NCBI GenBank assembly: GCA_963737635.1
Contig: CAVTTL010000001.1
Location: 160,001 to 224,000 of the forward strand
DNA length: 64,000 nt
Reading direction: 5' to 3'
Source of the DNA: an uncultured Methanoregulaceae archaeon
GTDB taxonomy: Archaea > Halobacteriota > Methanomicrobia > Methanomicrobiales > Methanospirillaceae
The notes below the pieces were generated by a model. The model had not been told where the DNA came from. It worked only from the letters and a program-made list of their open reading frames with translations, and made no database searches. The position numbers were made by a program, and so were the translations under genes. Shown here piece by piece: positions 28,032 through 56,770 of the stretch. Each line of letters starts with the position of its first letter. Position 1 is the first letter of the stretch.

Positions 28032-28113
28032 AGTAACTTTCCGGTGCCGAGCTTATAGTAACAGGCGAAACCCTTTACGTTCGGCAGACTATGATCGCTG
28101 CTGGTGAAAAGGA

Positions 28114-28713
28114 ATGCAGTTTGCAGAGTGCGTCATGCAGCGGTATGCGACCAAGAAGTTTGACGGCAGGAAGATTCCCGAAGACAAGGTAAACAAGCTC
28201 TTTGAGCTGGTGCGGTTTGCACCGTCGGCCCTGAACCTTCAGCCCTGGAAGATCAAGATCGTCGCGGACAAGCAAACCAAAGAGGAACTCCGCCGCGCTT
28301 CAAACGACCAGGAGCAGATCCCGACCTGTTCGCACCTGCTCGTCTTCTGTGCAGATGCAGATTACGACAGCCTGATCACACGGCTCGGCGAACTGATGAC
28401 CAAAAACCATGTGCCGGCGGATGTCGTCATGATGATCACCGGGATGGCCGCCCGGTTTGTTGCCGGGATGTCACCGGAACAGCAAAAGGCATGGTCCCAA
28501 GCGCAGACCTACCTCGCAGTAGGGAATGCACTCAACGGCGCAAAATCGCTTGGTTTTGATTCCTGCCCGATGACCGGCTTTGACCCTGCGGCATACGCCC
28601 GGATCCTGCATATCCCGGCTCATCTCACTCCGGTTATGCTCTGCCCGATCGGGTACGCGGCAGACACCCCCAAACCGAAGATCCGGTATTCCCGGGACGA
28701 GCTGGTGTTCTAG
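28114..28713 (+). CDS. Nitroreductase family protein
   Basis: RYATKKFD, APSALNLQPW, DSCPMTGFD. Confidence 0.9.
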   Translation: MQFAECVMQRYATKKFDGRKIPEDKVNKLFELVRFAPSALNLQPWKIKIVADKQTKEELRRASNDQEQIPTCSHLLVFCADADYDSLITRLGELMTKNHVPADVVMMITGMAARFVAGMSPEQQKAWSQAQTYLAVGNALNGAKSLGFDSCPMTGFDPAAYARILHIPAHLTPVMLCPIGYAADTPKPKIRYSRDELVF

Positions 28714-29053
28714 AAGCAGGAACAACCTTTGCTTCGGCACCGACGGTCCGAGCAGGTAAAACGGATCCCCGGTCTCCCGGTGTGGAAAAACAGGTAGTAA
28801 GGGGCCGTGACGAAGATTCCACTCACACCCGTAATTTTCCGTATCCATACAGGGTCCGGCACTTTTTTTTTGAGAGAGACGATAACCAGCCCACCAAAGT
28901 CCGCCGGCCCACGAGGGGGAGCAGGTTCCGGGACATGACCACCGCACCGCAGGAAACCCGATCTCCCGGCACCGGAAAAAACAGCGAACACGACTCCCCC
29001 CCGACGTCTCTTGTATCGCAATAGTTATATAGTCAATATGTGAATATTGACAT

Positions 29054-29500
29054 ATGCTTCTGCAGACGAACGAGAAGCAGTTCGCGTTCTGGAAGATGCG
29101 GCGCAGCGGCGTGCCAAACATCACCATAGCACACCGTGTCGGCATCTCGCGGCAGGCAGTCTCCCGGGCACTCCAGCTCATGGACGGCAAAATTGAATCG
29201 ACCCTCCGGGAGATGGCACATGCAAACCAGATCGAGATTGGGCAGATCAACGCAGAACGGGGCGTCCTCATCGGGAGATCCATCCCATTCCAGACCTCCG
29301 CGATCATCTTTGTCTCGGAGAAACACGGGATCCAGGTCTGGTACGAGCATGACGGCACGTGTGGCACCTGCGCGCGGTACACCGAATGCATCGAGCTCAT
29401 CTGGGATTATGCCACCGAACTTGGCATGAAGATCGAAAAGGCTGCCGACCCGACGAAAATGGCAGAAGAATTATTTGCAAAGGTAAAGGCGATCGTATGA
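29054..29500 (+). CDS. HTH-domain protein
   Basis: IAHRVGISRQAVSRAL; CxxC...C. Confidence 0.65.
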   Translation: MLLQTNEKQFAFWKMRRSGVPNITIAHRVGISRQAVSRALQLMDGKIESTLREMAHANQIEIGQINAERGVLIGRSIPFQTSAIIFVSEKHGIQVWYEHDGTCGTCARYTECIELIWDYATELGMKIEKAADPTKMAEELFAKVKAIV

Positions 29501-30010
29501 TAACACGATTCTCAGAAATGATCAACAACTGGATGGGCTGGTGCCCGAATGTCCAGATGCTCCCGAATGCCCCGACAACCACGACCATACCTGGGGCCCC
29601 GGTCCAGGGTGAACCGATAGGAGGCGGGGACGCGGGATCAACCAGGGAGTATCGCCACTGGCGGCGGGGACGGCGCTCCCTGGTCCCGGCCGGGCTCCTC
29701 ATCGGTCTTGGTGTCGGCCTGCTCGTAGGTTATGTACCTAGCCGCCGGGTTGATCGGCCTTGGTCTTGGATTCCTGGGATCCGCAGTCGTGAATACCCAA
29801 CAGCGTACAAGCGATGAGGATGGTTCGTCGTCCCACAAGCATGGCTTTGGCATTGCCATCGTCGGGATCTTTTTTATCATCTTCGGTATCCTGATCGTCT
29901 GGGCTCCGGTCCTCATCTGGCCATACATCGGTGCCGCCTTCCTCATCCTCCTCGGGATCGGGATCCTCGTCCACAGTTTCCTCCACCACGATCACGGACA
30001 GTGGTACTAA
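29497..30010 (+). CDS. DUF1673-like membrane protein (frameshifted)
   Basis: N-terminal WMGWCP; TM helices in two frames. Confidence 0.55.
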
Positions 30011-30088
30011 TTTTTTTTTGCGGAAGATTTGCGGAAGAGAACCATGATGGCATACCCCGGTGAAAAAAGGTATTGTTGAGGGTTGGTT

Positions 30089-30809
30089 ATGGTATCCACC
30101 GAACTGAATGCCGCAAACGACGTTGAGCATTTCAACCGCTGGTCGAAGACCTACGAGGCATCATGGATGCAGCGCCTGTATTTCGACCGTATCCACAAAC
30201 GGGTCCTTGCCGTCAGCCGGTGCCGGGCCTGCTCCCGGCAGCATCGTGGATGTCGGGTGCGGGACCGGGAGATTGCTGCGGAAAGCCCGGGAACGCTGGC
30301 CCCATGCGCACCTGATCGGTGTCGATCCGGCAGAAGGCATGGTGAAAAAAGCCCGGCTCATGATGCCGGATTCCGTGTTTATCGTGAGCCCGGCGGAATT
30401 GATACCTCTCCCGGATAGCTCAGTCGATCTCGTAGTCAGTACAACGTCGTTTCATCACTGGCAGGACCAGCTCCAGGGCATACGCGAGATCCGGCGCATT
30501 TTACGCCCCGGGGGCCCATTCCTTCTCTCTGATATGACGTTCCCTCAGTTCATGTTGAAATTCATTCACCACGGCCGGTTCTGTAATCCCCAGGAAGTCC
30601 GGGACATGTTCGAACAAGCCGGCCTGGAAGTCCGGATGCAGCGCCGGTCGTTGCTGGGACGGTCCCTGGTAACGGTTGGCATCCGGCCGTCGCTGGCCCC
30701 TAGGGATTCAGGCAAGTCTGCCGGTGAGTTGATGGGGGTCTGCTGTGGTTGGGACTCGATGGTGATCCGCACAACCCCTCAAATTCGCCAGACACTATCT
30801 GACCGATAG
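30089..30809 (+). CDS. Class I SAM methyltransferase (frameshift near 30220)
   Basis: VDVGCGTG, GVDP, SFHHW, LRPGG. Confidence 0.8.
30782..30808. repeat. 27-bp palindrome module, copy A
   Basis: AATTCGCCAG-ACACTAT-CTGACCGATA. Confidence 0.7.
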
Positions 30810-30919
30810 TCTGAATGCGGGCAGCAAAAACATAGTCGCCAGACGGCCGGATAGGTGATGAAAAAAAGATCCCCGATCTTTCGGCGCTAAAAAAAAAAGG
30901 TAGTTGTTCCTGTGATTCG

Positions 30920-31498
30920 TCATTTTTTTGTAATTGACGAGAGCCAGGCACGGGGGCCGTCGGCCCTCGCACGGCTCTCGAAGACCGCCGGCCTGATGTA
31001 ATTGATGGTCCAGCCGTCGCGGAAGCAGTCCTGAATTTCTTTCTGTGTCACTCTCCGTGGGCCGTATCCGCCGGGCTCGAGTTCGGAGAAGCAGAGCATG
31101 AAGTATTTGCCGGCCGGGGCAAGGACGGCTGCGAGGTTCTCCACAAAGATCGGGCGGTCTTCGTCTGATAGGGTGTGGAAGAGCCCGGAATCGGTGGCGG
31201 TATCGAACATCCGGTTGAGTTTCCTGAGTTCCAAGGCGTCCAGGACAAGAAAATGCACGTGGACTCCTCTCCCGATAGATTTCTCCTGTGCCTTCTTGAT
31301 CGCTAAGGGAGCGGCGTCGATCCCGTACACCTCGTGACCTTCCGCGGCAAAGAAGAGCGCGTGCTCCCCGGTCCCGCACCCGATGTCCAGGATATCACCG
31401 GTTATCTCCCCTCTCCGGGCCAGGTCAACAAACTCCTTCTGGGGCCGGCCGATGTCCCAGGGAGGTGTGCCCTGGTATGCCTCATCAAAAAAATCCAT
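30920..31498 (-). CDS. Class I SAM methyltransferase (TPMT/TehB-like)
   Basis: PPWDIGRPQ, LDIGCGTG, DSGLFH. Confidence 0.88.
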   Translation of the reverse strand: MDFFDEAYQGTPPWDIGRPQKEFVDLARRGEITGDILDIGCGTGEHALFFAAEGHEVYGIDAAPLAIKKAQEKSIGRGVHVHFLVLDALELRKLNRMFDTATDSGLFHTLSDEDRPIFVENLAAVLAPAGKYFMLCFSELEPGGYGPRRVTQKEIQDCFRDGWTINYIRPAVFESRARADGPRAWLSSITKK

Positions 31499-31649
31499 AG
31501 CTCACGATAGTTTCTAAGGGAGATATCAGGGTTTCTCCACGTTATAGCCGGTGCAACACTGGGGCATAGAAAGGATGCGATTTTACCGGGTACAAAGATC
31601 CGCTTCATCTGGTAGACGAGCCCTCTTAAGAGACCAAAGGGGATTGCCC

Positions 31650-32099
31650 TCAATGGGTAATGACCATCGAATCCGGCAGGGCACCGTGGTAGGCAAGGAC
31701 TTCTTTGAGCGTCATGGAGGCAAGCATCCGCGCCATGATAAGGGAGCCCGGCGAAACCCCCCGGACCTTCGCGAGCGGGTCATCCGGATCGCCGCAAGGA
31801 AGTTCACCGGATACTACCTGATCGAATACCTGTTTTATCATGTGGTTCTGGACAAACGTCAGTTCGGTCACGAAGCGCTGGCCGGGCATCCGGGCTGCAG
31901 CAAAGACGAAGCGGATCGTATCCTCGGACGGGTGCGCACTTCCTTCCGAAGAAAGTCTGAGCGTGCACGAGATTTCATACTGCTCAATTTCCCCTTTTTT
32001 GATAGCGGAATGTTCGATACTGAGCATCAGCACCCTTTTTACCGGGATCAGGTAGATGTGATGATCCACATCAAGCATGGCAATACGTTCTTCTGGCAC
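31650..32099 (-). CDS. Hypothetical protein
   Basis: 149-aa ORF with GAGGA RBS; no recognised motif. Confidence 0.5.
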   Translation of the reverse strand: MPEERIAMLDVDHHIYLIPVKRVLMLSIEHSAIKKGEIEQYEISCTLRLSSEGSAHPSEDTIRFVFAAARMPGQRFVTELTFVQNHMIKQVFDQVVSGELPCGDPDDPLAKVRGVSPGSLIMARMLASMTLKEVLAYHGALPDSMVITH

Positions 32100-32218
32100 A
32101 GGTATCCTCTGTGAAGGATGGTACTTCGATCAGGGATAACGTATTTGTGCCCGCACCCGATCCGGACATCGTACCCATACAAAACTATAAGGTCTATTGT
32201 CTCTTCACCATCTCCCGT

Positions 32219-32821
32219 ATGCCAACGATCATCGGGCTTCTGGGGAGCCCGCTTTTAGAAGGCAATACCGCCCTGCTGCTCGATAAGGCCCTGGAGGGAG
32301 CAAAGGCCGCCGGATGCGACGTTGAGCCTATCAGCGTCATCAGCCTGGACATCCAGAGCTGTCAGGAGATTTATCATTGTAAAGATCATGATACCTGCAT
32401 CTTCAGCGACGATATGACCCAGATCTACCCGAAGGTTAAGACCGTGGACAGCCTGATCCTTGCCACACCGGTCATGACAATGGGGATCCCGGGGCCTCTC
32501 AAATCGTTCATCGACCGGTTCCAGGTCTTTTACATGGCCAAATACTTCCGGAACCAGCCCCTGGTCTCTCCGGATCTCAAAGAAAGAAGAAAGAGTCTCC
32601 TCATCGGCATCTCCGGAACGGCAGTTCCCGGTGTATTCGACGGCACACAACAAACGGTAAGAGCATTCTGTGACATCATTGACTGCCCGTACCATGACGA
32701 CCTCCTTATCAGCGGCATGGACCGGATCAGGGACATAACGACGCGGCCGGATCTCCTCGATACCGCCTATAAGAAAGGATTTGCCCTCGGTGCCCTGCTT
32801 ACCACGACCGGGAGCACCTGA
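32219..32821 (+). CDS. Flavodoxin-like iron-sulfur flavoprotein / FMN reductase
   Basis: GSP..GNT, C..C..C..DDM, LKSFIDR. Confidence 0.85.
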   Translation: MPTIIGLLGSPLLEGNTALLLDKALEGAKAAGCDVEPISVISLDIQSCQEIYHCKDHDTCIFSDDMTQIYPKVKTVDSLILATPVMTMGIPGPLKSFIDRFQVFYMAKYFRNQPLVSPDLKERRKSLLIGISGTAVPGVFDGTQQTVRAFCDIIDCPYHDDLLISGMDRIRDITTRPDLLDTAYKKGFALGALLTTTGST

Positions 32822-32888
32822 AAAACGCGGAGCCAGCGCCGTGATCGTATCATCCGGCAACCATTGTCCCGGATCCGATTTCTTTGAT

Positions 32889-33302
32889 TCAACAGTACGA
32901 CGACCCGGTACCGATGACGGTCCCGGCGATATTATCGGTGGTATCGATAAGCGTGTGGGCAAGAAGGTACGCGTTATGGTACCCCATGATAACAGAGACA
33001 TCGTTGAGGGCGTCGAAAGCAGTGTATGCAACAATACACCCCAGGACCAGCATTGACAGGAGACCCAGTCTCTCGTTCTGTCTGAAGAGATAGGGTATGG
33101 CAACCATCACCGGTATTAGTGCCAGTATTCCGAGGAGCATGCTCGGGACCATGCCGATCCGGGTAAAAAAGGCGGCGGCAATCGAGTCGCATTCCATAAA
33201 ATGCACGTAGACCGACGAGAGATAAAGGGTGCAGAGAGACGCGACGGTCGCGGAGAACACCGCAGCCGCAATAAATGTCCAGTACCGTATATCGAACTTC
33301 AC
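32889..33302 (-). CDS. Hypothetical membrane protein
   Basis: Three hydrophobic helices. Confidence 0.5.
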   Translation of the reverse strand: MKFDIRYWTFIAAAVFSATVASLCTLYLSSVYVHFMECDSIAAAFFTRIGMVPSMLLGILALIPVMVAIPYLFRQNERLGLLSMLVLGCIVAYTAFDALNDVSVIMGYHNAYLLAHTLIDTTDNIAGTVIGTGSSYC

Positions 33303-33396
33303 ATGACTCAGTCTGTGGTTGATCTATATCTAGTTCCAGACGGTGATAAAAAAAGACTGGGTTCTGTAAGGTAATTGAAAAGGGATTTTTCCCCAC

Positions 33397-35092
33397 TTAT
33401 GGAACGTCCTTCCGGAACAGGAAGATCGCACCGCACAGTCCAAGCGCTCCGATAACCAGTACCGCATCAAGTCCGGACCGGGGCGTATTCGTTGGTAGAG
33501 GCGGCTCGGTAGTTGATGCCGTAACCGGATCGTTCACGGTCTGTGTTACCGTGGGCATGAGTGTTGGCGTGGATAGCGCCTGCGCGGGAGGTGGTGTGGG
33601 ACCGGTATACCCGTTGCTCTCACCGGTTCCGGAGTCTGCCCAATAATCGGTGCTGCTGTGAGCGTTACTGCTGGGGGGATCAGCCGGTGTTGGCGTCGGG
33701 GCTGCCGATATCGGTCCAACCGGCGTGCTGTTGACTGAACCGGAGTAACCTCCCGTACCGGTGGCATTAGCCTCGATATACATGCCCAAGTCACTGGAAA
33801 CCGGTGAATAAGTATAGGATGTTGCCCCGGCGATAGGCGAATACGGGCCGTTTATGGAGGCAGATTCATTCCACTGGATCGTTGCGGGTGCACCGGCAGG
33901 CACCACCGTACCATTCGTCAGCGTCTGGCCGACCTGAGGCGTACCGGCGATCGCACCTATTGCAGTGAGGGGCGTTAGCGCGGTCACCGGTGCAGTCACC
34001 GGTGCACTCATCCGGTCCGGGCTCAGCCTGGCAGTTACGGAAAGGGTGTCAGTCGTTACCAATGCGGGAACGGTCACCGTCCAGGATCCTCCCGCAGCCG
34101 TCACTGCGGCCTGTGCTGTTCCATCGTACGTGAGCACGACACTCGCACCCGCAACAGCCGTGCCACTCACGCTGGTTGCACCTGCGTACACCGGGGTGGT
34201 GATAACCGGAGACGCCGTCCGGGTGGGCGGTACGATAAACTCGCCCCAGGCACTAGGTTCTGATCCAACGGGTATCGTTGTGGTAACCGTATTCGTGGCG
34301 GTGTTAATCACTGAGGTTGTGTTTGCTCCTAAATTCGCCACGTATACCGTTGAACCGCTCGGGGTCACCGGGGTCACGGCAACACCTTCAGGACCGGTTC
34401 CCACAGGCACCGTTGTGGTAACTGTATTCGTGCTGGTATTAATCACCGAGACCGCATTGGCTCCATACTCCGCCACGTATGCCGTTGCACCGTCCGGGCT
34501 CACGGCAACATTATAGAGAGTGGATCCGATAGTCACCGTTGTGGTAACTGTATTCGTGCTGGTATTAATCACCGAGACCGTGCCGTCTCCATAGTTCGTC
34601 GCGTATACCATCGAACCGTCGGGAGTCACGGCAATCCCCGCAGGCATCGATCCTACCGGTATCGTTGCGGTAACTGTATTCGTGCTGGTGTTAATTACCG
34701 AGACCGCATTGGCTCCATACTCCGCCACGTAGAGCTTGTACCGTCCGGGCTCACTACGACGTTATCAGGACCGGCGGAGGATCCAATAGTCACCGTCGCG
34801 GTAACCGTATTCGAGCTGGTGTTAATTACCGAAACCGTGCCGGCTCCATTGTTCGCCACGTAGACCGTTGCACCGTCCGGGCTCACGGCAGCACTCTCAG
34901 AACTGGTTCCTACATTTACCGTTGCGGTAACCGTGTCCGAGCTGGTGTTAATTACCGAAACCGTGCCGTCTCCTAAATTCGTAATATAGGCATACATCGG
35001 TGCGGGTACTGCGCTGCACAAGGGCATCACAAAGAAAAGCAGGAGTATCCCAAGAGCTGTTCGTGGAAAGAGTTCATCTTTCGTTCACCCAT
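33397..35092 (-). CDS. Cell-surface YVTN beta-propeller protein with C-terminal sorting signal (frameshifts near 35030 and 34735)
   Basis: ~42-aa repeats VAVSPDG..YVAN...VSVINTSTNTVT; Ig-like/PT-rich stalk; TPRSGL-TM-RK tail. Confidence 0.85.
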
Positions 35093-35316
35093 TAGTACCG
35101 CCTCATTGACAGGCGGACAAAACCCGGGAATACACGTAGTATTCAGCGATAACCATGAGAGGTCAGGTTCCAAAATTCTGTGTACCCGGTTCATTAAATG
35201 AAGGGTAGAAGCGGGTATAAACGTTTTCAAAAAAGTGGGGTGACGGAGGATTGCCCTTACCCGGCAGTCTTTCCCTCGTGCCCCGTGTTTTCTGAAAAAC
35301 AGCGGGAACACCCGGA

Positions 35317-36216
35317 TTAATACCCTTTGAGCTCAGCGTCAATTCTCTCGAGCTGGGCAATCCGCTTCTCTAAGGGCGGGTGCGTAGCGAAGAGCTCCAT
35401 AATTTTATTACCGGAAAGTGCCGGGATGATGAAAAATGCGTTTGCTCCCTGGATACTCGCCTTTGCCTGGGGAGGGACCACATCCATCCTGCCGGTGATC
35501 TTGTTCAGCGCGGAGATGAGCGCCTGAGGGTTCCTCGTGATCAGCGCACTGCCGCGGTCTGCCGCAAATTCCCGGTACCGGGAGAGCGCGAGCATCAAGA
35601 GTGTTGCGACGACCCAGACCACGACTGACGCCAGCCCGACGATGATCAGGCCGCCACCGTTGCCCCGGCCGCGTCCGCCTCCCCCGAACAGTGCAGAGAA
35701 GAACAGGCTCTGCATGACCATCGACGCGATCATGGCAACGAAACTGGCAAGCGTCATGGTCAGGATGTCCCGGTTCTTAACATGGGACAGTTCGTGCGCG
35801 AGCACGGCCTCGAGTTCGTCGTGGTTCAGCAGTTTCAGGATCGAGTCGGTACAGCAGACAACCGCGTGTTTGGGGCTCCGTCCGGTGGCAAAGGCATTGG
35901 GTACCGGGCTTGGCATGATCGCGATCTTCGGCATGGGGAGATCCGCTTCCGTACACAGTTTCTTCACGATCTGGTGGAGCTCAGGATATTCATCTTCGGT
36001 GATGATACGGGCCCTTGTACTCCAGAGCACTAACTGGGCCGAGAAGAAATACTGGACAACGGCAAATCCAACGGCCAGAAGGATGATCAGCCCGAAACCG
36101 GCACCGAACTCAAAGAGAATAGTCATGAACACCAGGTAGACGATGAAGAGCAGGAACATCGTCAGCCAGACCCTGGCCGTCAGGCCCCAGTCACGTGTCC
36201 ATTGCATACGTGACAC
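35317..36216 (-). CDS. htpX: Zinc metalloprotease HtpX
   Basis: PNAFATG, HELSH, SRYREFAAD, THPP. Confidence 0.93.
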   Translation of the reverse strand: MSRMQWTRDWGLTARVWLTMFLLFIVYLVFMTILFEFGAGFGLIILLAVGFAVVQYFFSAQLVLWSTRARIITEDEYPELHQIVKKLCTEADLPMPKIAIMPSPVPNAFATGRSPKHAVVCCTDSILKLLNHDELEAVLAHELSHVKNRDILTMTLASFVAMIASMVMQSLFFSALFGGGGRGRGNGGGLIIVGLASVVVWVVATLLMLALSRYREFAADRGSALITRNPQALISALNKITGRMDVVPPQAKASIQGANAFFIIPALSGNKIMELFATHPPLEKRIAQLERIDAELKGY

Positions 36217-36641
36217 CTCTTAAGAAGATGATTTCTTTGTCCATACTGATCCATACACGCCGGAGGCTATATTAGTTGGCGTGAGGCCGGTTCCTGGTGG
36301 CGACGTAGTTCATAGTTTACGAGATAACATATTGACTGGAAAACCGTCATATTACCACCATCCTGAGAGGTACATGCTGAGCACCACTCTGCCGGATACC
36401 GCGTACCCTGAATTTCCGAGTACCAGGAGGGGGGATCAGTTTTGCACATCTCCGAAGTAAAATGACCATAGTGAGGGCCCGGGTACCCCGAATTTCTGGC
36501 CACCACACAAAAGAGTTTTGTCCGTCGTGGAAAACCCTTTCGTGGCAGGATTGTGCCCTGAGCATATAACTTAATAACCCTGCCTTTTTATGAATAACCC
36601 TGAAGGTATCTATAAAAAACAGAAAGAACGTACCTGTCTGG

Positions 36642-37667
36642 ATGAAGGTTGTCATTGATATTACCGAGGATACGCTGCACCGGATCAAGGAAGTTAATCA
36701 CGACTCTTCCCTTGCGGGTTTTATTTGTGTTGCCATTGAAAACCAGCTTTCCCTTGAGAAGGATCAACACTTACACACACGCCGATCTGGCAGGAAAATC
36801 CGACACACGGGAGACCGGCCTCTCCCGTCCCCGGAAACCATCGCGATCGTAAAAAATCCCTTACATTATGAACTACTCAAAGGCATCCCGTCGCATATCC
36901 CCCTCCAGAATTATTACCTCTGGGGCCAGTATAACAAATTCTTCCCCGTTAAATTTGCCGTGAGATACCTGGCATATATGCAGATAGAGAATAATGCAGA
37001 CCCGGTACCATTACCCGAATTCCAGATCCGGTGCTCACGATCCGCGTCCGGGATGAAACGTATATTGAAAGAGAGCGATACGAAGGCAGGAAGAATATGG
37101 GGAGAAGGATTTGCCGTGGGACTCCCTGATAACCAAGACAAATCCTGGACACGGTTCATCAATCATTTCATCGGGTATACCGATTCGTGGGATAAACCGG
37201 TGGGAGCCCTCCCGGATCTCGGATTTATCGTGATAGAGAAGGAATCCGTAGCGTTATCCCCCCACGGCCTTGTGTTTGCCAGAATATCCAATCCGGTCCT
37301 TGACACCGATGTATTGTCTTCGCATCTGTTCAGCCAGGAAGAAAAAGATTTCTTGATTCTGTACCTGAAAAGAAAGCATTCTGTCGAATGGGACGGTTAC
37401 CAGAAAGTCATGCGCTGGATCGGGATGGGATTCGATACTCCGGCTGCATTAAATGAACACTTTTCCACGCTTGACCGGAAATGGACGAAAAAAATGGCAA
37501 ATACCTACCGGACCGGGATGATCGGCAGAATGGTCGACCTGGGGCTCATCGCCCGGACAAAAACCGGGGTAAGAGTGAAGTATATCGTGACTGATTTTGG
37601 GATAAAGATGGAAGAACCTCTCATGGAAGACACATATAATAATAAATTTGTAATCCCTCGCGGATGA
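36642..37667 (+). CDS. Uncharacterised protein, N-terminal RHH-like and C-terminal wHTH-like
   Basis: MKVVIDITED..SLAGFICVAIENQL; GMIGRMVDLGLIAR...YIVTDFG. Confidence 0.6.
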   Translation: MKVVIDITEDTLHRIKEVNHDSSLAGFICVAIENQLSLEKDQHLHTRRSGRKIRHTGDRPLPSPETIAIVKNPLHYELLKGIPSHIPLQNYYLWGQYNKFFPVKFAVRYLAYMQIENNADPVPLPEFQIRCSRSASGMKRILKESDTKAGRIWGEGFAVGLPDNQDKSWTRFINHFIGYTDSWDKPVGALPDLGFIVIEKESVALSPHGLVFARISNPVLDTDVLSSHLFSQEEKDFLILYLKRKHSVEWDGYQKVMRWIGMGFDTPAALNEHFSTLDRKWTKKMANTYRTGMIGRMVDLGLIARTKTGVRVKYIVTDFGIKMEEPLMEDTYNNKFVIPRG

Positions 37668-37878
37668 TACCCGGGAAAAACGTTTTGGTTAACGTGGTAG
37701 GGGCAATCACGTTTCCAGCGCCTCATAAAATTCTCAATCCCTCGATCACGTTAACAGAACCGAAAGAGGGTAAACCGGCGTATTCAGACGAGGTTTTATT
37801 TTTAAAATATGAGTACTTTATATATAATGTCTCCATACAACCTGCTATACCCTACCGTGTCTCGTGGTGAACTATGCC

Positions 37879-39772
37879 ATGTGGGACATTTCCGCTCTTG
37901 TTACAAATCCGCTTTTTCTTCTGGTAGTCGCGGGTATTGGTGCCCTTTTTGGTTATGCGTTTAAAGTCTTCCGCGATGTCTGGAGGGCGAAAATCAAGCA
38001 TCGGGAGGAGTTGGCCACTCATGTCGTTAAACAGATCGAAAAATACGCGCCGGCGTTCTATCTCATGGTCAATTACTCTCATAACCTCGCTCATATTTTA
38101 AACGAATATCTTGAAGTGAAATGCTGGATCCAGATGCAGCAGGACCCATCAGGATTACCGGTTGGCGACCCCCGGGGCGCCGCGTTCCGTTACGATGAAA
38201 ACTCAAAAGCGTATGCTAAATATGCCTTGTTTCCAGCGGTCAAACTCTATTCGGTTATGTCCAACCGCTTGTGGAATAAAGGCGGTGTATATATCCTGCC
38301 GGATCGGTGGGCGAACCAGGCGATCGACGACCTTCACAACGAACTGGTCAAAGTGTTAACGTTTGATGCAGAAGTTCTTCTTAAATATGTCAATGAGAAA
38401 ACACCCGATTATAAATTTTACAACAAACTCAAAGATTCAGAAACTGATGAAACCCTAAAGGATCTTCAGAAATCTTACCGGGAATTCGAAGAATGGATGC
38501 AAACGAAGGACAGCGAGGTAAAGAAAGCTGCCGCCTTTGCAAATGCGTACAGTGATCTTTTCAGCAACCAGATGGTTACCCGCCTTTATAAAGACTGGTA
38601 TGATCGGGGATTTGTCTTTAAACCGGCAGAGAACCCCCTGAAAGCCCCGGAAGTAACATCATCTTCTTCAGATTTGTGTGAAGAGACCAGGGTAATGATC
38701 CGGCTGGCTGCACAACATCATTCCAGCCAACAAAGATTAAGAAGTAAGTTACTCCTCAGGAATATTGAAAACGACAAGCGAATCCGGAATTATAATTCCC
38801 ACTTCGAAATCGGGTGGAAATATTACGCCTATAAAAGCTATGATATGGCGATTGAGGAGTATACAAACGCTCTCCGTGAAGATCCCGGCAATGCGATTGT
38901 GTATAATAATCTGGGAAACGTATACGCAGACTTCAGGTCAAATGGACCGTGCCCTGGAAAACCTGGAGAAATCCCTGCAGTTATTTGAAGAGGCTTCACA
39001 GTGGGAAGCCAGAAATCCTCTTATTAAAAAAATGATTACCTTCTCTAACGGAACAACAAGACTGTTTAAAAAGATCTTAAAACCGGGCATGGAAAATCCC
39101 CTTACTCATGTTTATACGCCTTTGTTTTATAGCGAGGCACTGCTGAACGCCGGCAAAACCTATTATAATGCCGGATTTAATGCCGAAAAACCTGATACAA
39201 CAAAGGAATATTATGATAAGGCTATTGGCTGTTTCAGGAAAGGCCTTTCTCTTGAAGATTCAGCGAATGAATTCCTCTTCTATAACCTTCTGGCCCTGAT
39301 TAGTAATTTAAAAGGAGAATTTGCCGACGCTGCTGAAAATTATCATAAATCCATTGTTCTCTCACCAACTGACGCGACATTGTATGGGAATCTTGCGTCA
39401 AATTACAAAGAATGGAAAAAAAATGGCGCGGCACTGTGGGCTTACCAGGAAGCTATCGAGATTTCCAAGGATAACAAACAACAGGCCGGTTTTTACAACA
39501 AGAAAGGGATTATGTTACAGGACGATAACAAGTGGCCTGAAGCAACTGATGCCTTCTTAAAAGCGATGACGTGTGACAGTGCCGAAAAAAGCTATGCGAA
39601 AAACCTGATCGATGCCTGGAATACCTGGAGGGACCCCGGTAAGAAGTTTGATCAGGCGGGTCAGGATAAAACGCGTGAATCCGTCGAGAATATGATTGTA
39701 GGCACTGCCTTGAATTTGACTGACCCGGATCTTTGTGATACCGTAAAAACTGCCTTCAACCTTAGTCCATGA
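37879..39772 (+). CDS. Membrane-anchored TPR protein (frameshift near 38985)
   Basis: N-terminal TM; YNNLGNVY and YGNLA TPR motifs. Confidence 0.7.
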
Positions 39773-39935
39773 GAGGCAGACCCTGGTGATAAACAGGGAC
39801 TCGGGGGAGAGGCGGTTCTGTTCCTGTCCCGGTCCCTGTTTGTCGTATTGTTGTACCCGATCTGCGTGGTGTGTGCTGATGATTTTCTCTCACCCAGGAC
39901 ATCACGCTGGGATCATCGGGAGATGCTTAGCGTTC

Positions 39936-40277
39936 TTAGAAAACCGTATCCCCGGTCTCCCGGGTCTGGATCCTCATTGCCGTCTCTACCGGCGACACGA
40001 AAATCTTACCATCGCCGATATGTCCGGTACAGGCGCGATCGCTGATACCCTCAACGATAGTCCTGACGTCCTCGTCTTTCACGATAAGTTCGATCTTTAC
40101 TTTTGGCATGAAATCGTACAGGCTTGGACCCTCAGTGTCCTGGTACGGGTCGATCTCATTTTCGGTCCCCCGGTACCAGATATCATAATGGATCATGGAC
40201 CGGTGGCCCAGGGCAAGCAGGGCATCGTTTACTTCATTGATGCGTTCGGGCCTCACATATGCTTCAATCTTCTTCAT
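39936..40277 (-). CDS. P-II family nitrogen regulator
   Basis: MKKIEAYVRP, PKVKIE, TGHIGDGKIFV. Confidence 0.9.
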   Translation of the reverse strand: MKKIEAYVRPERINEVNDALLALGHRSMIHYDIWYRGTENEIDPYQDTEGPSLYDFMPKVKIELIVKDEDVRTIVEGISDRACTGHIGDGKIFVSPVETAMRIQTRETGDTVF

Positions 40278-40415
40278 GCATAAGTTATAGAGTTTTCATC
40301 AAAAATATAGTTTTTCTTTGTGATGATATATAGTAATGATTAAATCTATATATCTGCGGGATGAGATGGATGTACGGGTACCAGCCCGAAGCGCGGCTCC
40401 CCCGGGGAAAGGTCT

Positions 40416-40805
40416 ATGGTCTACCGTCTCCACCAGGAACAACTCAAAAACGTGGCGCAGGCACTCAAAGAGCCCTACCTGGTACGGCAGACGGCTTCCG
40501 GCGTGCAGGAAACTCCGGTCGCCGGAAAGACGCCGGTACACCGGGAACCTGCCACTCCGGTGGAGGAGGCCCATCCTGAGGACCGGGAAAGCGCCGGGCC
40601 GCACTCCCTGCGACCGGCACCGGCAGTTCCCTCTTCGTGGCTTCCCGCAATGCAGTGTGTTGAATGCAACGATCGTATTCCGGTGATGGATTTTCTCTAT
40701 GCCCAAAAGACCGGCTTATGTATCCGGTGTTGGGAGGAACAGGAGAGCCGGTATGACAACGAAAATACCCAGTTCCTGTCCCGGGCAGAATATCCTCTTC
40801 TGTGA
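40416..40805 (+). CDS. Hypothetical protein with C4 Zn finger
   Basis: CVEC...LCIRCW. Confidence 0.55.
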   Translation: MVYRLHQEQLKNVAQALKEPYLVRQTASGVQETPVAGKTPVHREPATPVEEAHPEDRESAGPHSLRPAPAVPSSWLPAMQCVECNDRIPVMDFLYAQKTGLCIRCWEEQESRYDNENTQFLSRAEYPLL

Positions 40806-40847
40806 GGTTTTCTTACTCCTCGTACCCTTTGTCCGATGGGAGTCACC

Positions 40848-40874
40848 AATTCCGCAGACAGTGTCTGCGCAATT
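40848..40874. repeat. 27-bp palindrome module, copy B
   Basis: AATTCCGCAG-ACAGTGT-CTGCGCAATT. Confidence 0.7.
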
Positions 40875-40967
40875 GCCTTTTGTTATCCTGATTTGTCCTG
40901 CTCTCATCCTCCTCACTCATTGTCGTTGTCGTACGAGTTGTCGCACCGTCGTAATAATGAGCGATCT

Positions 40968-41040
40968 GTCATTTTTTTCGCTATGGACGAGTACTACGCC
41001 CGCATGAGGTAATTGATGATCCAGCCGTCGCGGATGCTTC
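40968..41040 (-). pseudogene. Relic of the 3' end of the 30920-31498 methyltransferase
   Basis: tcatttttt..gacgag and gtaattgatgatccagccgtcgcgga match 30920-31025. Confidence 0.7.
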
Positions 41041-41140
41041 CCGGGCAAAACGGACGCCGATGACGGCAATGCTCCCGTGGAGGTAATACATCCTCTTAAA
41101 TACCGGAATCAAATATCTCTCTCAGATTCGAGGTTTGGGC

Positions 41141-41335
41141 ATGGACTTCACAATTGCGATCGAACAGGATGAAGATGGCTGGTACGTTGTCACGGTACCG
41201 GCACTCCCAGGCTGCATCTCTCAGGGAAAGACTGAAGCAGAGGCGAAGAAAAACATTGCCGAAGCCATCGAGCTGCATCTCGGTGCACTTGCCCGGGATG
41301 GCATCCCCCTCTACCAGCGGCCGGGTACATCGTAA
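41141..41335 (+). CDS. hicB: HicB-family antitoxin (no hicA seen)
   Basis: EDGWYVVTVPALPGCISQGKT..EA..NI.EAIELHL. Confidence 0.88.
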   Translation: MDFTIAIEQDEDGWYVVTVPALPGCISQGKTEAEAKKNIAEAIELHLGALARDGIPLYQRPGTS

Positions 41336-41391
41336 TTCTGTAATAAGTTTCGGTACAGCCGGAGTTGATACGGGATACGTTCATTACGAGA

Positions 41392-42141
41392 CTACAACAA
41401 CGAAACAAAATCTTCGCATACCCGGCGGATTTCCTGTGGTGTCATCCTGTCATATCGTTTACCAGCGGCGTCAAGATCCGGTATTTCCGAAATTTTTTCT
41501 TTGAGAAATTCAGCTCGTGATATCTGGCTGCCGATAATCTCCAGGTCAATTTCACGTCCGCCCCGGTCTGGGTCAATTAAAGCGAGAATATCTGCTGCAT
41601 CTTTAATCCACTTTGCACCTTCCCAACTGGCATTGCCAGATGTCTGGTGGAGAATTCTATACGATCTATCCCATGCCGCTTTTAATTTTAGGAGAACTAA
41701 CATCGACCGATTCGGGACCTGTATTCTCGCTCCCCCGCGAACATTCCGGAAAACCGTGTTTCCTGTAAGAAGATCTAAGGAGAACGGGACTTCCGGGTGC
41801 CCTTCGAATTTATAGGAAATTCCCCGGGGAATAAAATCGAGAATGATTTCTCCGTGAGAAGTCATCTTTTCGACAGTGTCTGAAGGATAATTGATCCGGG
41901 GCGTATACCCTTCGTTGATCGTTAAATGCTCGATTAATAATCTTTGGGAAGTGTTGTCGGTAACAAGGTCTATATCAACCGACCCAAAATACGGGTTGTA
42001 GACATCCACAGCCCAGCCACCGATAAGTACGACATTGTCTGTTGAAGGTATCGAGCCGGGAATATTTATCCACGCTACAATGTTCCGGAGTTCTGCAAAA
42101 GAAGCCTCAATAATTTCCGGACCTGGATCATAAACCGGCAT
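41392..42141 (-). CDS. AbiEii-like nucleotidyltransferase toxin
   Basis: VLIGGWAV, SVDIDL, LKLKAA.DR, KDAADI. Confidence 0.8.
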   Translation of the reverse strand: MPVYDPGPEIIEASFAELRNIVAWINIPGSIPSTDNVVLIGGWAVDVYNPYFGSVDIDLVTDNTSQRLLIEHLTINEGYTPRINYPSDTVEKMTSHGEIILDFIPRGISYKFEGHPEVPFSLDLLTGNTVFRNVRGGARIQVPNRSMLVLLKLKAAWDRSYRILHQTSGNASWEGAKWIKDAADILALIDPDRGGREIDLEIIGSQISRAEFLKEKISEIPDLDAAGKRYDRMTPQEIRRVCEDFVSLL

Positions 42142-43156
42142 ACTTCTCCACCATTGCTGTTGTCAGGTCCATGGCACTATACCCAAGTCCGGCCAGATCG
42201 AGAAGTGTTTGCGCGGGAGACGCAATCGTAATGGATTCTTTTTCCTGAACATCCGCGAAAACATCCCGGTCCGGGGAATAAATGATGGCACGGATCGTAT
42301 TCTCTGTTTTCGATTCAAAATGTTCCTTAAATGCAGCTATTGATTCCTTTTTGAGATAGAGATAAACTGCATCATGCCGGAATGCGTATGAGGTATACAA
42401 TCCCCCCGACGTGTAGGTAGTAAATGCACACGGTATGTTCTGTTCTTTGAGAGCCCGGCTGATTTCCTGGGCTGCGGTATGCGCTCCGGAGAAATCGACA
42501 AATATTTTTTCATCGATTTCAAAATTCTTCATGGGGCGCTCCCATGCGACCGCATTCAGGAGCTTCTTCACATCGGCAATCGTTACGTACCCGCTGTCTT
42601 TTTTGACCACATTCTGGTCGAGGAGCATCCCGATTACCTTATGGGCCAAACCATACGAGACGTTTTCTTTGATGGCTGCCTGCCGGATTGAGGTACTTTT
42701 CTCTTTGAGAAGACGGGAGATCACCCTCCATGATTTTTCCGACGTAATTCTCATCCCGGATGGTGGGTGTTCCTTGTTTGGGGCAGTTTCAAGTGTCCAA
42801 GGCAATTTTATGAGCCGGATTCCTAACTCTCCTGCAAGCTGTTCTTCGCGCTGATGTATCCCTTTGGCAGCAATTACCAGATGGATATCGAAAGAGTCGG
42901 TCTCCCTCCGCCGCCACAATTCCCTGAGCAATGCCATTCTTGCGATGGTATCGATGGTAACCGCAGAACTTTTTACCTCAACGAAGTACAAGGTTCTGTC
43001 GTCTTTGAAAATACAGTCAGGTCGTATCGGTAGGTCCAATGAGAGGGTGGTATACATCGTACCTATATCGATCTCTTCAGCCGAAGAGGGCAGATTAAGT
43101 TGACCCCGAATGAAAGCCGCGACTTCCGGAAGTTGGGATGCATCCATGATTATCAC
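42128..43156 (-). CDS. AbiEi-like antitoxin (PD-(D/E)XK-like N-domain, wHTH, AbiEi C-domain)
   Basis: RPD...VEVKS, SIRQAA...VSYGLAHKV, ASPAQTLLDL; overlaps the toxin. Confidence 0.8.
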   Translation of the reverse strand: MIIMDASQLPEVAAFIRGQLNLPSSAEEIDIGTMYTTLSLDLPIRPDCIFKDDRTLYFVEVKSSAVTIDTIARMALLRELWRRRETDSFDIHLVIAAKGIHQREEQLAGELGIRLIKLPWTLETAPNKEHPPSGMRITSEKSWRVISRLLKEKSTSIRQAAIKENVSYGLAHKVIGMLLDQNVVKKDSGYVTIADVKKLLNAVAWERPMKNFEIDEKIFVDFSGAHTAAQEISRALKEQNIPCAFTTYTSGGLYTSYAFRHDAVYLYLKKESIAAFKEHFESKTENTIRAIIYSPDRDVFADVQEKESITIASPAQTLLDLAGLGYSAMDLTTAMVEKYAGL

Positions 43157-43280
43157 TTATTAGTGATACTTTATTAATGTATCACTGATAAGTATCTCTG
43201 TTTAGTGATATATATATTAAGATATCACTGATAAGTACTTCTATTTAGTGATAGGTATATGAAGGTATCACTGATAAAAA
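43151..43280. promoter_or_regulatory. Three tandem palindromic operators upstream of the AbiEi-like gene
   Basis: AGTGATA-N11/12-TATCACT at 43162, 43204 and 43247 (42-43-bp period). Confidence 0.8.
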
Positions 43281-43333
43281 TGATAATCCAATGAGCTTTT
43301 CCATGACTTCTGTGGGAAAAGTACGGTCTCTCA

Positions 43334-43360
43334 AATTCGTCAGACACTATCTGACTAATT
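43334..43360. repeat. 27-bp palindrome module, copy C
   Basis: AATTCGTCAG-ACACTAT-CTGACTAATT. Confidence 0.75.
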
Positions 43361-43482
43361 CGTGATGGTATGAGCGTTTTTTGTCCTGATGTGGTCTATA
43401 CCTCGTTTTCTCCTACCTCATTGTTGGTTGTCGTATGGGTTGTCGTACCGTTGTAGCAATGAGCGATTCGTCCTTTTTTGGT

Positions 43483-43536
43483 TTGCCGAAGCCATCGAAC
43501 TGCATCTCAGCGCACTTGCCCGGGATGGCATCCCCC
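43483..43536 (+). repeat. Duplicated hicB 3' segment
   Basis: 54 bp with 3 mismatches to 41256-41309. Confidence 0.9.
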
Positions 43537-43633
43537 CTCGGTTCTGATACGTTGGCGGTTGACGGGGGATTTTTTCCGGGATGAAAACGTGGAGCCGTTA
43601 ACGTATCAGGACCGGTAAAAGCATAATTAAAAT

Positions 43634-43750
43634 CCCCTCGGCGATTTCGATGAAGTGATCGCTGCACTTGTGCTCTGTAATGACAACCAGATCATAACGC
43701 GGGATCGTCATTTTGAAAAAATCCCCCACCTTTCCGTAATACCATACTGA
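43634..43750 (+). pseudogene. VapC/PIN toxin C-terminal relic
   Basis: PLGDFDEVIAALVLCNDNQIITRDRHFEKIPHLSVIPY*. Confidence 0.75.
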
Positions 43751-43875
43751 TAGTGTCTCCCCTTGGCACCACGTGGGAGAAACCGGTCTTCCTCAGGTTT
43801 TTCCTTTTTTTAGTCAACATCAACCGGTTATGACGATATCGTTTTTCGTTATCCAGGCAACGCGAACGATACGGG

Positions 43876-44238
43876 TTACTTTCCCTGGATCTTCGCGAGC
43901 GCCTCTGCCGCTTTTGCGCGGGTTGTTTCGTCGGCATCCTTCAGTGCCTCGGTGAGCGCCCCGACCGCTTTTACCGATTTTATCTCGCCCAGTGCCCATG
44001 CAGCCCCGTGCCGGACGTACACATGGCTGTCTTTGAGGGCCTGGATGAGCGGTTCGACTGCTTTTTCTGCTTTGAGCTGTCCCAGGGCGCCGGCAGCGGA
44101 TGAACGGACTATTTCATCTTTGCCCTTTTTGAGGTCCTGTAGTAACTGCTCGACCTTTTTTTCCACCGGTCCGGGAGCGGCCGCGCCAGGATTGCCGGCA
44201 CTTGTCTTTGCCTTCTTTTTGTTGTTGAATACCTGCAT
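43876..44238 (-). CDS. HEAT/PBS-lyase repeat protein
   Basis: VR..AA.ALG...AV..L..ALKD repeats. Confidence 0.88.
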   Translation of the reverse strand: MQVFNNKKKAKTSAGNPGAAAPGPVEKKVEQLLQDLKKGKDEIVRSSAAGALGQLKAEKAVEPLIQALKDSHVYVRHGAAWALGEIKSVKAVGALTEALKDADETTRAKAAEALAKIQGK

Positions 44239-44563
44239 GCTGTTTCAACTCCTGTACTCATATCATCCGCGTGGACACCGGGATGGTACGTGTTTTTTTC
44301 GTACTCATGAGACCATTAAAAGATCTCTCCTGAAAATCAGGTGGTGAAACACCGTTTGCAATGTTCTCCCGTGTGTTGTTTCCTAACGTTTAAATAACAA
44401 AATGTAAAATGTGCTATACATTGTCTTTCGCGGATGCTGCTTTTCGGTATCAGCGAAGAACGAGGGAAACGAGCGGGGAGTATATACCGGATCTTCTTTT
44501 TCGCGGAGATCGCCCTAAAGAAAAACCGCCCCGTGGTTACCGATACTGGAGCTGAATTCTGAA

Positions 44564-45109
44564 ATGGGAAAAATCATTCTGGTTGTTTCTGCGTCTGCGA
44601 AAGGATCTACGCCCGAGATAGCACAGGCACTGGGAAACGAGCTGCAGGAAGCAGGATATTCCGTCGAAGTGGCCGATACAAACGATATCGTTTCACTCAA
44701 AGGCTGTACAGCGGTTGTTTTTGGCATCCCACTCTCGACCGTATGTTCAGGAAAGGACGACCTGTGCAGTTTCAAGCACCAGTTCAGCAAAGAGCTCGCT
44801 CAGATACCGGTCGCTGCATTCAGTGCGGGACTCTTCTATGAAGGGTTAAAGCAGGAACGAATTGACGCTCTTATGACGACCCTCAAGGAAATACTCTCCC
44901 CGCTCCAGCCGCTGGCGACCGGTGTATTTGTCGGTACGCTGGGACAGGAAAAAGCAAAGCCGGAAAACGGCGGGTACACCACCCTGCAATCGCCTGGACC
45001 GTTCCCGGACCCGGGTAAAATCCGGGACTGGGCACAGGCATTGCCTTCGCTTCTGGACCTGCGTCCGTCCGGCACGCGCATTGCCGGTACTCCCCGGGGT
45101 GGTGTATGA
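44564..45109 (+). CDS. Flavodoxin-domain protein (HemG-like)
   Basis: ASAKGST.EIA, IRDWA. Confidence 0.75.
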   Translation: MGKIILVVSASAKGSTPEIAQALGNELQEAGYSVEVADTNDIVSLKGCTAVVFGIPLSTVCSGKDDLCSFKHQFSKELAQIPVAAFSAGLFYEGLKQERIDALMTTLKEILSPLQPLATGVFVGTLGQEKAKPENGGYTTLQSPGPFPDPGKIRDWAQALPSLLDLRPSGTRIAGTPRGGV

Positions 45110-45591: not shown

Positions 45592-45627
45592 AAAAAGCCG
45601 GTACAGGAATTGCGGCAGATCATACCT

Positions 45628-45942: not shown

Positions 45943-46053
45943 TCATCAACTCCTGCCGATGTACAAAACGAGTGATTCCAACGATATTAAAACACTGTAT
46001 GAAAGGAAAAGAGTTCACCAACCCTAAAGGAAGGAACGGTTTAACGCGGGTGA

Positions 46054-46188: not shown

Positions 46189-46293
46189 AGCATGTTAATC
46201 TGTGAAGGTAGTCATAAGTATGTAATCCGTGTATAGGTGGATAATACGCGTATATGGGGATAAATTTATGCATTACGGATACCTCTTATCTTC

Positions 46294-46702: not shown

Positions 46703-46771
46703 GATCCTTCTTTTTTCTACTCTTTTGGGATTGGTTCTGGTACGTCGGCGAATTGATGGCTGGCAGGAAAA

Positions 46772-47242: not shown

Positions 47243-47380
47243 GGGTATCAGTCCCTTATTTGTTGACTGTAGCTGCCCGGAATTATATACTTTATTTAAT
47301 ATTCTCTGTGATTCCTAGAATTGTCAGGTAATCCCGTGAGGCCAGGTAAATGCGGCACTCTGGCATTGCAGGGCACGAGA

Positions 47381-47455
47381 TCGACAAACGCCTTCCGGGG
47401 CCGGCCGATGTCCCAGGACAGTATGCCCTGTTTATGTATTACCCAAAAAATCCAT
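47381..47455 (-). pseudogene. Relic of the 5' end of the 30920-31498 methyltransferase
   Basis: ggggccggccgatgtcccagg and aaaaaatccata match 31425-31500. Confidence 0.75.
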
Positions 47456-50143: not shown

Positions 50144-50152
50144 GGTGATTTT

Positions 50153-56760: not shown

Positions 56761-56770
56761 TTCCTCTCTT

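Follow-up and report, generated by a model that had tools for sequence, protein, structure and literature searches.

How does one short palindrome come to stand repeatedly where blocks of genes of different origin meet in an archaeal chromosome? The question is raised by a stretch of 64,000 nucleotides from an uncultured Methanoregulaceae archaeon (contig CAVTTL010000001.1 of GenBank assembly GCA_963737635.1, positions 160,001 to 224,000), here called the window, in which a 27-base palindrome is present as three copies, A, B and C. A previous interpretation based on the letters alone (the sequence-only reading) took the copies for a Xer/dif-like site, comparable to pdif modules, at which a tyrosine recombinase had added cassettes one after another. 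Here, we trace the palindrome to the coding sequence of YhcG/DUF1016 nuclease genes, describe its copies outside such genes, and weigh the ways in which these copies could have reached their present positions. In what follows, G000 is the genome that holds the window, other G numbers are its relatives in the genus (108 genomes), and L numbers are individual loci.

Three copies of one palindrome

The palindromes reported at 30782, 40848 and 43334 are all present. A search with AATTCNNCAGACANTNTCTGNNNAATT, allowing up to 3 mismatches, matches the window at these sites only (2 mismatches in A, none in B or C), and extending the search to the whole assembly of 2,460,051 bases adds no further site. 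In dinucleotide-shuffled versions of the window the mean count was 0.03, and none of 100 such versions had as many as the 5 strand-matches observed. All three copies lie within 12.6 kb and in the same orientation. Two other kinds of element were considered and rejected: with three copies only, this is no genome-wide repeat, and a MITE or insertion-sequence end is ruled out by the small copy number, the confinement to 12.6 kb and the lack of direct duplications at the edges.

The symmetry, previously described as 10-7-10, is actually 13-1-13, with 12 of the 13 positions paired in B and 11 of the 13 in C. The right arm of A has indeed decayed, and as read from the sequence about 9 of its 13 pairs are kept. 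B is one of only 6 27-mers in the genome with at least 12 of 13 pairs. Folding of the DNA as hairpins gives -9.7 kcal/mol for B (z -5.2), -6.2 for C (z -3.2) and -3.8 for A (z -1.9). A and C agree at 25 of 26 bases (30778-30803 against 43330-43355), an identity limited to the palindrome plus 4 bases; otherwise they have in common only the 15-base tail motif discussed below. Both carry an ACTAT variant of the centre, which is also present in orphan arrays of G076 and G028, and the closest relative of A is found at G076:C198:929-955.

Two of the copies had been placed between convergent gene ends, a description that holds for A only, which has live convergent genes on both sides. B has the 3' end of one gene on one side and a dead gene fragment on the other; it starts 43 bases past the stop codon of a 129-codon gene (40416-40805) and is followed after 3 bases by TTTT. 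C adjoins a gene start, and a T6 run begins 17 bases after it.

A coding feature of YhcG/DUF1016 nuclease genes

The YhcG/DUF1016 gene is one of the commonest passengers in restriction-modification loci, and we know of no function for it. When relatives are searched at the DNA level, only the approximately 30 bases of the palindrome match, at 90-97% identity and often as 2-3 copies 54 bases apart. In one such locus (L002), the palindromes lie inside a gene of 396 residues reading ...PQIPQTVSAKLPAKTPTETPIMQTVSAKLPAKTPTETPISQTVSDQFIPRFTLSWSHY..., which matches DUF1016_N (1.2e-39) and YhcG_C (1.6e-54) and has as its best PADLOC match the candidate defence family PDC-S02. The palindrome codes for the I-x-QT[VL]S-x-[KQE]-[LF] linker of YhcG/DUF1016 PD-(D/E)xK nucleases, and it reads QT[VL]S on both strands. 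A genus-wide search, one of the checks that the sequence-only reading had proposed, finds the pattern with at most 1 mismatch in 42 of the 108 genomes, and a reversed-pattern control in none. Within genes that encode both DUF1016_N and YhcG_C, the palindromes typically come as 2-3 copies at 54-base spacing.

The association extends far beyond the genus. A scan for the exact pattern in one genome per prokaryotic species yielded at least 121 loci in Bacteroidota, Bacillota, Pseudomonadota, Cyanobacteriota, Verrucomicrobiota, Acidobacteriota and several archaeal groups. Among the 80 loci that were fetched, an open frame of at least 100 codons runs over the palindrome in 61, and short frames or none in the other 19; 53 of the 61 frames match DUF1016_N and/or YhcG_C, and 8 match neither. 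Because the search pattern fixes the core, the 30 top YhcG loci of the genus were also picked by protein profile alone. Thirteen of these contain a 27-mer with at least 11 of 13 pairs, located 202-277 bases upstream of the YhcG_C match, compared to 1 of 30 for control stretches of equal length starting at that match; in the remaining 17 no palindrome was found at this threshold.

The symmetry is kept at the DNA level, by covariation of the arms. Considering the 48 distinct variants of the wide scan, positions 7/21 form a Watson-Crick pair in 43, 6/22 in 37 and 5/23 in 30, against shuffle means of about 13 and maxima of 23-25; the 21 variants of the genus set give 20, 14 and 5 for the same pairs. 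The arm covariation that had been claimed from the window copies is thus real. In the coding frame, pair 7/21 joins a wobble to a second codon position, and 6/22 a second position to a wobble. Moreover, the arms differ wholly between YhcG subfamilies (with readings such as IVPQAVGQ, FVQQVAAQIP and IGYTVCSEL), each being self-complementary in its own way.

As far as our literature search shows, this coding palindrome is apparently unpublished: no description of it was found among the literature matches listed. One study found DUF1016 and RhuM genes enriched beside the targets of programmed inversions, and its main text makes no mention of a palindrome (PMC9881135).

Two side observations concern proteins and palindromes of this kind. 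In the YhcG protein of L089, from a Salinivirgaceae metagenome-assembled genome (MAG), residues 101-150 match HTH_ParB below threshold (20.1 bits, where the cut-off is 22.6) beside the palindrome-encoded part of DUF1016_N. A different palindrome, (C/G)AACTAT..GGAA(A/T)TTCC..ATAGTT(G/C), is present at L039:2527 and at L032:2107 and 2180, in a RhuM gene and a neighbouring small open reading frame (ORF).

Orphan copies in the window and orphan arrays in the genus

Which gene do the window copies belong to? G000 has no DUF1016_N match, and tblastn with the L002 YhcG protein returned nothing significant from this assembly, which is 90% complete. YhcG_C is matched there once only, by a relic of 45 residues (C1:321855-321989) some 98 kb past the end of the window, and no YhcG coding homology was found within 120 bases of A, B or C. 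We therefore regard the window palindromes, almost certainly, as orphan copies of the YhcG type. They resemble the coding palindrome (PF17761 + PF06250; PDC-S02) in their 27-base 13-1-13 form, AATT ends and CAGACA.TGTCTG core, in the covarying positions 5-7/21-23, and in their readings (I-x-QT[VL]S in B, QIRQTLSD in A and C). They differ in lying outside any YhcG gene: none of the three belongs to a gene encoding DUF1016_N and YhcG_C, with the palindrome some 200-280 bases upstream of the nuclease domain, as gene-borne members do. Beyond the window, at C1:321732-322088, the start of a HicB-like gene runs into the 45-residue YhcG_C relic, and 73 bases after this relic, at C1:322062, there is a palindrome of another YhcG subfamily (ATTTGTCCCACAAGCTGTGGGACAATT).

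Orphans are not peculiar to G000. We classed 52 palindrome clusters (49 in genus loci, four of these loci being duplicates, plus the 3 in the window) by the presence of YhcG homology within 120 bases on the N-terminal and C-terminal sides. Both sides are present in 29 clusters and neither in 20, including A, B and C; the C side alone is present in 2 and the N side alone in 1. In 14 orphan loci, 33 palindromes with at least 11 of 13 pairs and of several arm types lie in 50.2 kb, against 0.6 in shuffles.

The layout of the orphan loci varies. Seven (L038, L040, L041, L032, L010, L039 and L006) contain non-coding arrays of differing 27-base palindromes, which have AATT ends, a CA(C/G)TG centre and different arms, some of them matching other YhcG subfamilies; the neighbours include SLFN/AlbA_2-HATPase_c_4, Fic, RhuM and Dam genes. 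At L007/L047, L009 and L028, three QTVS-type palindromes spaced 52-54 bases apart are preceded by TGTGCAGCA..TGCTGCAC, the YhcG palindrome of the FVQQVAAQIP subfamily, and one frame of the array is a short open frame of three QTVS repeats. At L046 (G028:C13, 2448-2528), a palindrome, the spacer known from the genes and a second palindrome stand with YhcG sequence on neither side; their surroundings are HepT, C5-methylase and Vsr genes, and the arrangement looks like an excision of the repeat unit exactly along its outer edges.

The junction module as a mosaic of gene relics

In the sequence-only reading, each palindrome was followed by a second conserved motif. The motif GAT(TC/CT)GTC(A/C)TTTTTT does recur three times, at 30914, 40963 and 43465, and its distance from the palindrome starts is 132, 115 and 131 bases, respectively, and so 115-132 instead of the 120-140 given. 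This motif is the stop codon and tail of MT2, a gene of 192 codons on the minus strand that encodes a TehB/TPMT-like methyltransferase; the TCA in GATTCGTCA is its TGA stop. Since the motif is the end of a methyltransferase gene, palindrome and motif do not make up a unit.

The homology claimed between B and C is confirmed by an alignment that begins at the palindrome's left edge and ends with the T-run, broken by indels of 13 and 3 bases, and folding predicts for each of them the imperfect hairpin that they were said to have in common (CTCATTG...CAATGAG). The two modules go back to a single mosaic relic and have since diverged; it consists of the palindrome, a segment of about 45 bases resembling the beginning of a gene for a membrane methyltransferase, about 50 further bases, and the 3' tail of an MT2-like gene. 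For the second of these parts, 40872-40914 gives short DNA matches in G024, G016 and G010 (E 2e-4 to 1e-3), which fall on the start of a gene for a 225-residue membrane protein, with about 36 of 44 bases alike. The MT2-like relic after B corresponds to about the last 28 codons of the gene; 40997-41037 and 30986-31026 are 88% alike over 41 bases (tblastn E 0.028). After C, the T-run is fused to the middle of a HicB gene, of which at least the last 18 codons remain (94% identity over 54 bases with 41256-41309), so that C is a B-like arrangement minus about 277 bases. A relic of the opposite end of an MT2-like gene lies farther to the right (47374-47455; tblastn 68% over 19 residues, E 7.6e-4) and has DNA matches to the MT2 genes of G122 and G105. 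Searches for homologues of the B/C spacer in genus genomes gave short matches only, and a metagenome scan with a degenerate B/C pattern gave 0 matches. All in all, the 'junction module' is very probably a mosaic of gene relics and not a functional unit.

A is a separate copy, decayed further than B and C. In G113 (L048), which is syntenic with the window over 28068-33350 at 75-80% identity, the homologous gene end (...CCTTCGTTATTTTTTA...) is about 57 bases from the MT1 stop, with no palindrome between them. In the window, about 228 extra bases stand at this place, and the MT1 frame continues into them for about 40 codons, reading through palindrome A. Outside the palindrome, this stretch (30686-30913) has no match in the 108 genus genomes. 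A half copy of the palindrome follows A, and the 49-base spacing between them resembles that in the two-palindrome orphan arrays of relatives (47-51 bases).

Genes between and beside the copies

The HicB cassette between B and C is common in the genus: 24 places in other genomes are found among the matches listed, and none has the module attached, the matches in relatives beginning at about 41077 with the module outside. The AbiE-like pair that follows is kept together with its TATCACTGATA repeats as a unit in G081 (76% identity) and G004 (69%), and neither of these loci contains a 27-base palindrome with at least 11 of 13 pairs. The family names come from Atlas look-alikes only (AbiEii 0.98, AbiEi 0.94); searches of Pfam, PADLOC, NCBIfam and PDB sequences with the two proteins (orf249 and orf342) found nothing. 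The 43-base repeats upstream are probably operators of the AbiEi-like gene. An integrated small plasmid with iterons between B and C was considered, and is ruled out because in G081 and G004 these repeats accompany the AbiE-like pair. An inverted pair, TTTAGTGATAGG...GGTATCACTGATAA, stands about 85-95 bases from a palindrome in three genomes (window 43172-43300; L010, approximately 1330-1370; L039, approximately 1060-1110) and also upstream of the AbiE-like pair in the two palindrome-free genomes; it is probably an operator used in common by regulators of defence islands.

The interval between A and B mixes genus-widespread genes with genes of lower G+C content and of unknown function. To the right of C, a gene of 829 codons for DrmE, of the DISARM system (47654-50140), opens an island of low G+C content (47000-61000; 0.29-0.40, against about 0.55 elsewhere), which places the palindromes at the edge of a larger defence island. 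At its gathering threshold, Rfam reports only an intron-bearing tRNA in the window (3795-3911); at E up to 1 it gives nothing relevant for four palindrome loci, and ARAGORN found no tRNA. The features are collected in Table 1.

Table 1. Positions of the palindromes, relics and neighbouring genes in the window
Feature	Position	Strand	Remarks
Extra stretch of ~228 bases between MT1 and MT2	30686..30913		Carries palindrome A; absent from syntenic G113
Palindrome A	30782..30808		Orphan, YhcG type (almost certainly); decayed right arm; reads QIRQTLSDR in the MT1 frame
Half copy TCGCCAGAC	30830..30850		49 bases after palindrome A
MT2, intact TehB/TPMT-like SAM methyltransferase gene	30920..31498	-	Stop is TCA in GATTCGTCATTTTTTT (30914-30929)
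Palindrome B	40848..40874		12/13 pairs; reads IPQTVSAQL
Possible 5'-end relic of a membrane (ICMT-like) methyltransferase gene	40872..40914	+	In frame with palindrome B
3'-end relic of an MT2-like gene (residues ~159-186 and stop)	40952..41037	-	Holds GATCTGTCATTTTTTT at 40963-40978
HicB antitoxin cassette	41077..41335	+	Gene 41141-41335; Pfam HicB_lk_antitox 1.3e-12
AbiEii-like (41392-42141) and AbiEi-like (42128-43156) pair	41392..43233	-	Includes part of the upstream TATCACTGATA repeat region
Three 43-base tandem repeats	43172..43300		Each with the inverted pair TATCACTGATAAGTA / TTTAGTGATA
Palindrome C	43334..43360		11/13 pairs; reads QIRQTLSD, then stop
Module C body	43361..43480		Homologous to 40875-40978; ends in MT2-type tail GATTCGTCCTTTTTT at 43465-43479
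HicB 3'-part relic AEAIELHLSALARDGIPP...	43483..43545	+	Joined straight to the T-run
5'-end relic of an MT2-like gene	47374..47455	-	Has a stop and a frame shift

Origin of the junctions

How, then, did the palindromes come to lie at these borders? We lean, on balance, towards the view that sites A, B and C are scars of palindrome-promoted gene replacement. Genes would have been replaced in a variable stretch rich in defence genes, with the palindrome as the point of breaking and joining: it would form a hairpin or cruciform, be cut, and then be repaired illegitimately. Alternatively, a YhcG-type nuclease may once have acted on the palindrome, no intact YhcG gene being left in G000. That the palindrome itself caused the junctions is a more demanding claim, which we would put slightly short of an even chance.

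Breakage at the palindrome is suggested by the homology between B and C, which begins at its left edge, by the restriction of A/C identity to the palindrome and 4 further bases, by the clusters, of which only 3 in 52 are one-sided gene fragments, and by L046, where two palindromes and the spacer known from the genes are all that is left. A relic mosaic is suggested by relatives that have the AbiE-like and HicB cassettes but not the module. In addition, each copy is followed by a truncated remnant of a former neighbour. Gene replacement in variable defence islands leaves pseudogene fragments, and the truncated 3' and 5' ends beside swapped cassettes (MT2, HicB and the AbiE-like pair) resemble these; the difference is that here the relic repeat starts exactly at the orphan palindrome of an unrelated gene family.

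Several observations weigh against gene replacement at the palindrome. Its association with junctions comes from the three window copies and from loci that were all fetched as palindrome-bearing, and no break was seen directly. The sequence-only reading had proposed checking whether synteny breaks coincide with the motif; synteny with G113, the nearest usable relative, stops at about 33350, away from any palindrome, the closest genomes available for this comparison being about 75-80% identical and the synteny search, over 20 kb, scoring only two candidates in each. The M48 peptidase gene in the A-B interval is found at 70-82% identity in most listed genus genomes, where it does not adjoin MT2, so that the interval is not simply an accessory cassette. 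No target-site duplications were seen at the palindromes, and the short matches of the ICMT-like gene-start relic (E about 1e-3 to 1e-4) identify it weakly. Finally, metagenomes reveal no rearrangement. Thirteen DNA runs from six studies hold part of 40500-43700, and four runs from four studies were compared over 28000-47900. Their soil-metagenome contigs are 99-100% identical to the window and bridge A (X3 record 10, 30092-31001), B (X3 record 13, 39844-41897) and C (X6 record 29, 42150-43562), and a search of the contigs of these four runs for excision or alternative joints found none that links two modules. Because contigs drop rare variants, this result argues only weakly against activity. 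With A decaying and no variant arrangement seen, the copies now appear inert. Separately, the contigs lack one base at 29737, 30214 and 46563 (four runs) and at 38930 (the three runs covering it); since the base is absent in all covering runs, the window assembly probably has single-base insertion errors. With 38930 corrected, the TPR ORFs 37864-38988 and 38765-39772, which overlap, would become one; 30214 is near the MT1 start.

The main rival to gene replacement is that the copies are neutral relics, the last pieces of decayed YhcG genes or of imported orphan arrays, whose position at junctions is coincidental. Decay of A and the uniform arrangement in the four runs fit such an origin, as does the second YhcG relic that the genome keeps, together with a palindrome of another subfamily, at C1:321855-322088. 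In addition, the first 18 bases after palindrome B are similar to spacer sequence in G098, where three palindromes form an orphan array; B and C may thus have been imported ready-made. Random decay, however, predicts many one-sided fragments, and the clusters include 20 orphans against 3 that are one-sided; A, B and C themselves are flanked by YhcG homology on neither side. Nor can one dead gene account for the 33 palindromes of several arm types that the orphan loci contain where 0.6 are expected, and we judge the neutral origin to be unlikely. A role as binding sites for a dimeric helix-turn-helix (HTH) protein, either the ParB-like N-domain of YhcG or another regulator, with the orphans as operators or loading sites, would account for the perfect two-fold symmetry and the fixed AATT ends, for a palindrome type that tracks the YhcG subfamily, and for the sub-threshold HTH_ParB match in one YhcG protein. 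The familiar parallel is parS, which lies inside parB/spo0J; sites of related HTH proteins are likewise found in or near their own genes. As with parS, a perfect palindrome stands in the gene of a protein with a DNA-binding-like head and has extra copies elsewhere. The YhcG palindrome differs in covarying within one subfamily, which is not expected of a fixed half-site, and in that the other half of the protein is a nuclease, binding by the head being putative. Moreover, G000, at 90% completeness, has no DUF1016_N gene to supply the binder, A is without its right arm, and palindrome-free relatives have the HicB and AbiE-like cassettes complete with upstream regions of their own. Binding sites of this kind seem to us improbable. 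Could the palindromes instead act in RNA, as hairpins that stabilise or terminate transcripts at their 3' ends? The stable hairpins of B and C invite the question, as do the convergent genes around A, the nearby stop codon and TTTT at B, and the T6 run after C. A terminator scan found none at the three palindromes (its model is of the bacterial type and has little bearing on archaeal termination). On the MT2 strand, transcripts would have ended at two T-runs before reaching A; C comes after the start of a gene and not after its end; and the same palindrome inside coding sequences is left unexplained. We consider an RNA element very improbable.

The recombinase site with which this locus was first explained has the least to recommend it. 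Three copies in one orientation at block boundaries, with gene remnants beside each and arms that covary as in structure-recognised attC sites, do recall a Xer/dif- or integron-like site at which a tyrosine recombinase inserts cassettes serially. A dif site consists of two arms of about 11 bases around a central region of 6-8 bases in which strands are exchanged, by XerC/D in bacteria and XerA in archaea. The window copies resemble dif/pdif in being short imperfect palindromes of about 28 bases at the borders of accessory modules. Pairing in B, however, runs to a single central base, which leaves no asymmetric central region of 6-8 bases, and the arms, which are fixed in dif, take many values at positions 5-7/21-23 and covary. 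In addition, the copies all point in the same direction and do not alternate, and the element is native to YhcG coding sequence in many phyla and both domains. An attC site is an imperfect palindrome of about 55-140 bases with R and L boxes, which is acted on by an integron integrase together with attI. It has in common with our element conserved ends and a variable, self-complementary middle, suggestive of recognition by shape, as well as a place beside swappable genes. The window element is far shorter, at 27 bases, no extrahelical bases were noted in it, and the window has no integron integrase, attI or ordered same-strand cassette array. Pfam searches of 40 window ORFs found no integrase, in keeping with the earlier statement that no recombinase is encoded there; the only Phage_integrase matches in the genome, at C1:273900 and C1:1459787, are both outside. 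Considering also that the module resolves into gene relics, that the A-B interval with its M48 peptidase gene is more than an accessory cassette and that the four runs contain no excision products or alternative joints, a Xer/dif- or integron-like site is hardly credible. Of the proposed accretion of cassettes at the motif, one part stands, namely that the copies sit where blocks of different origin meet; the recombinase mechanism fails.

Implications for defence islands

Three aspects of these results appear to be new: an archaeal genome without a YhcG gene that still keeps orphan copies of its palindrome; orphans that far outnumber one-sided gene fragments (20 against 3); and orphan arrays that mix palindromes of several YhcG subfamilies. 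They also carry a warning for annotation, in that apparent junction modules can be mosaics of gene ends and not functional sites.

The palindrome bears on how defence islands can exchange their genes so readily: it is kept symmetric by covariation from Bacteroidota to methanogens, and stray copies edge swapped blocks. It thereby offers a testable candidate DNA substrate for the YhcG nuclease or for hairpin-processing machinery of the host. A broader proposal, which we put forward as a long shot, is that palindromes of the YhcG type serve as DNA sites defined by their shape, in which ends and centre are fixed and the arms are free to vary as long as they stay self-complementary. At such sites, defence-island genes would be exchanged in bacteria and archaea, and cutting and pasting would be the work of the YhcG nuclease itself or of hairpin-processing enzymes of the host. 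If this were true, the orphan copies and mixed arrays of the genus would be landing pads and footprints of exchange, and the palindrome would be a recombinase-free counterpart of integron attC sites.

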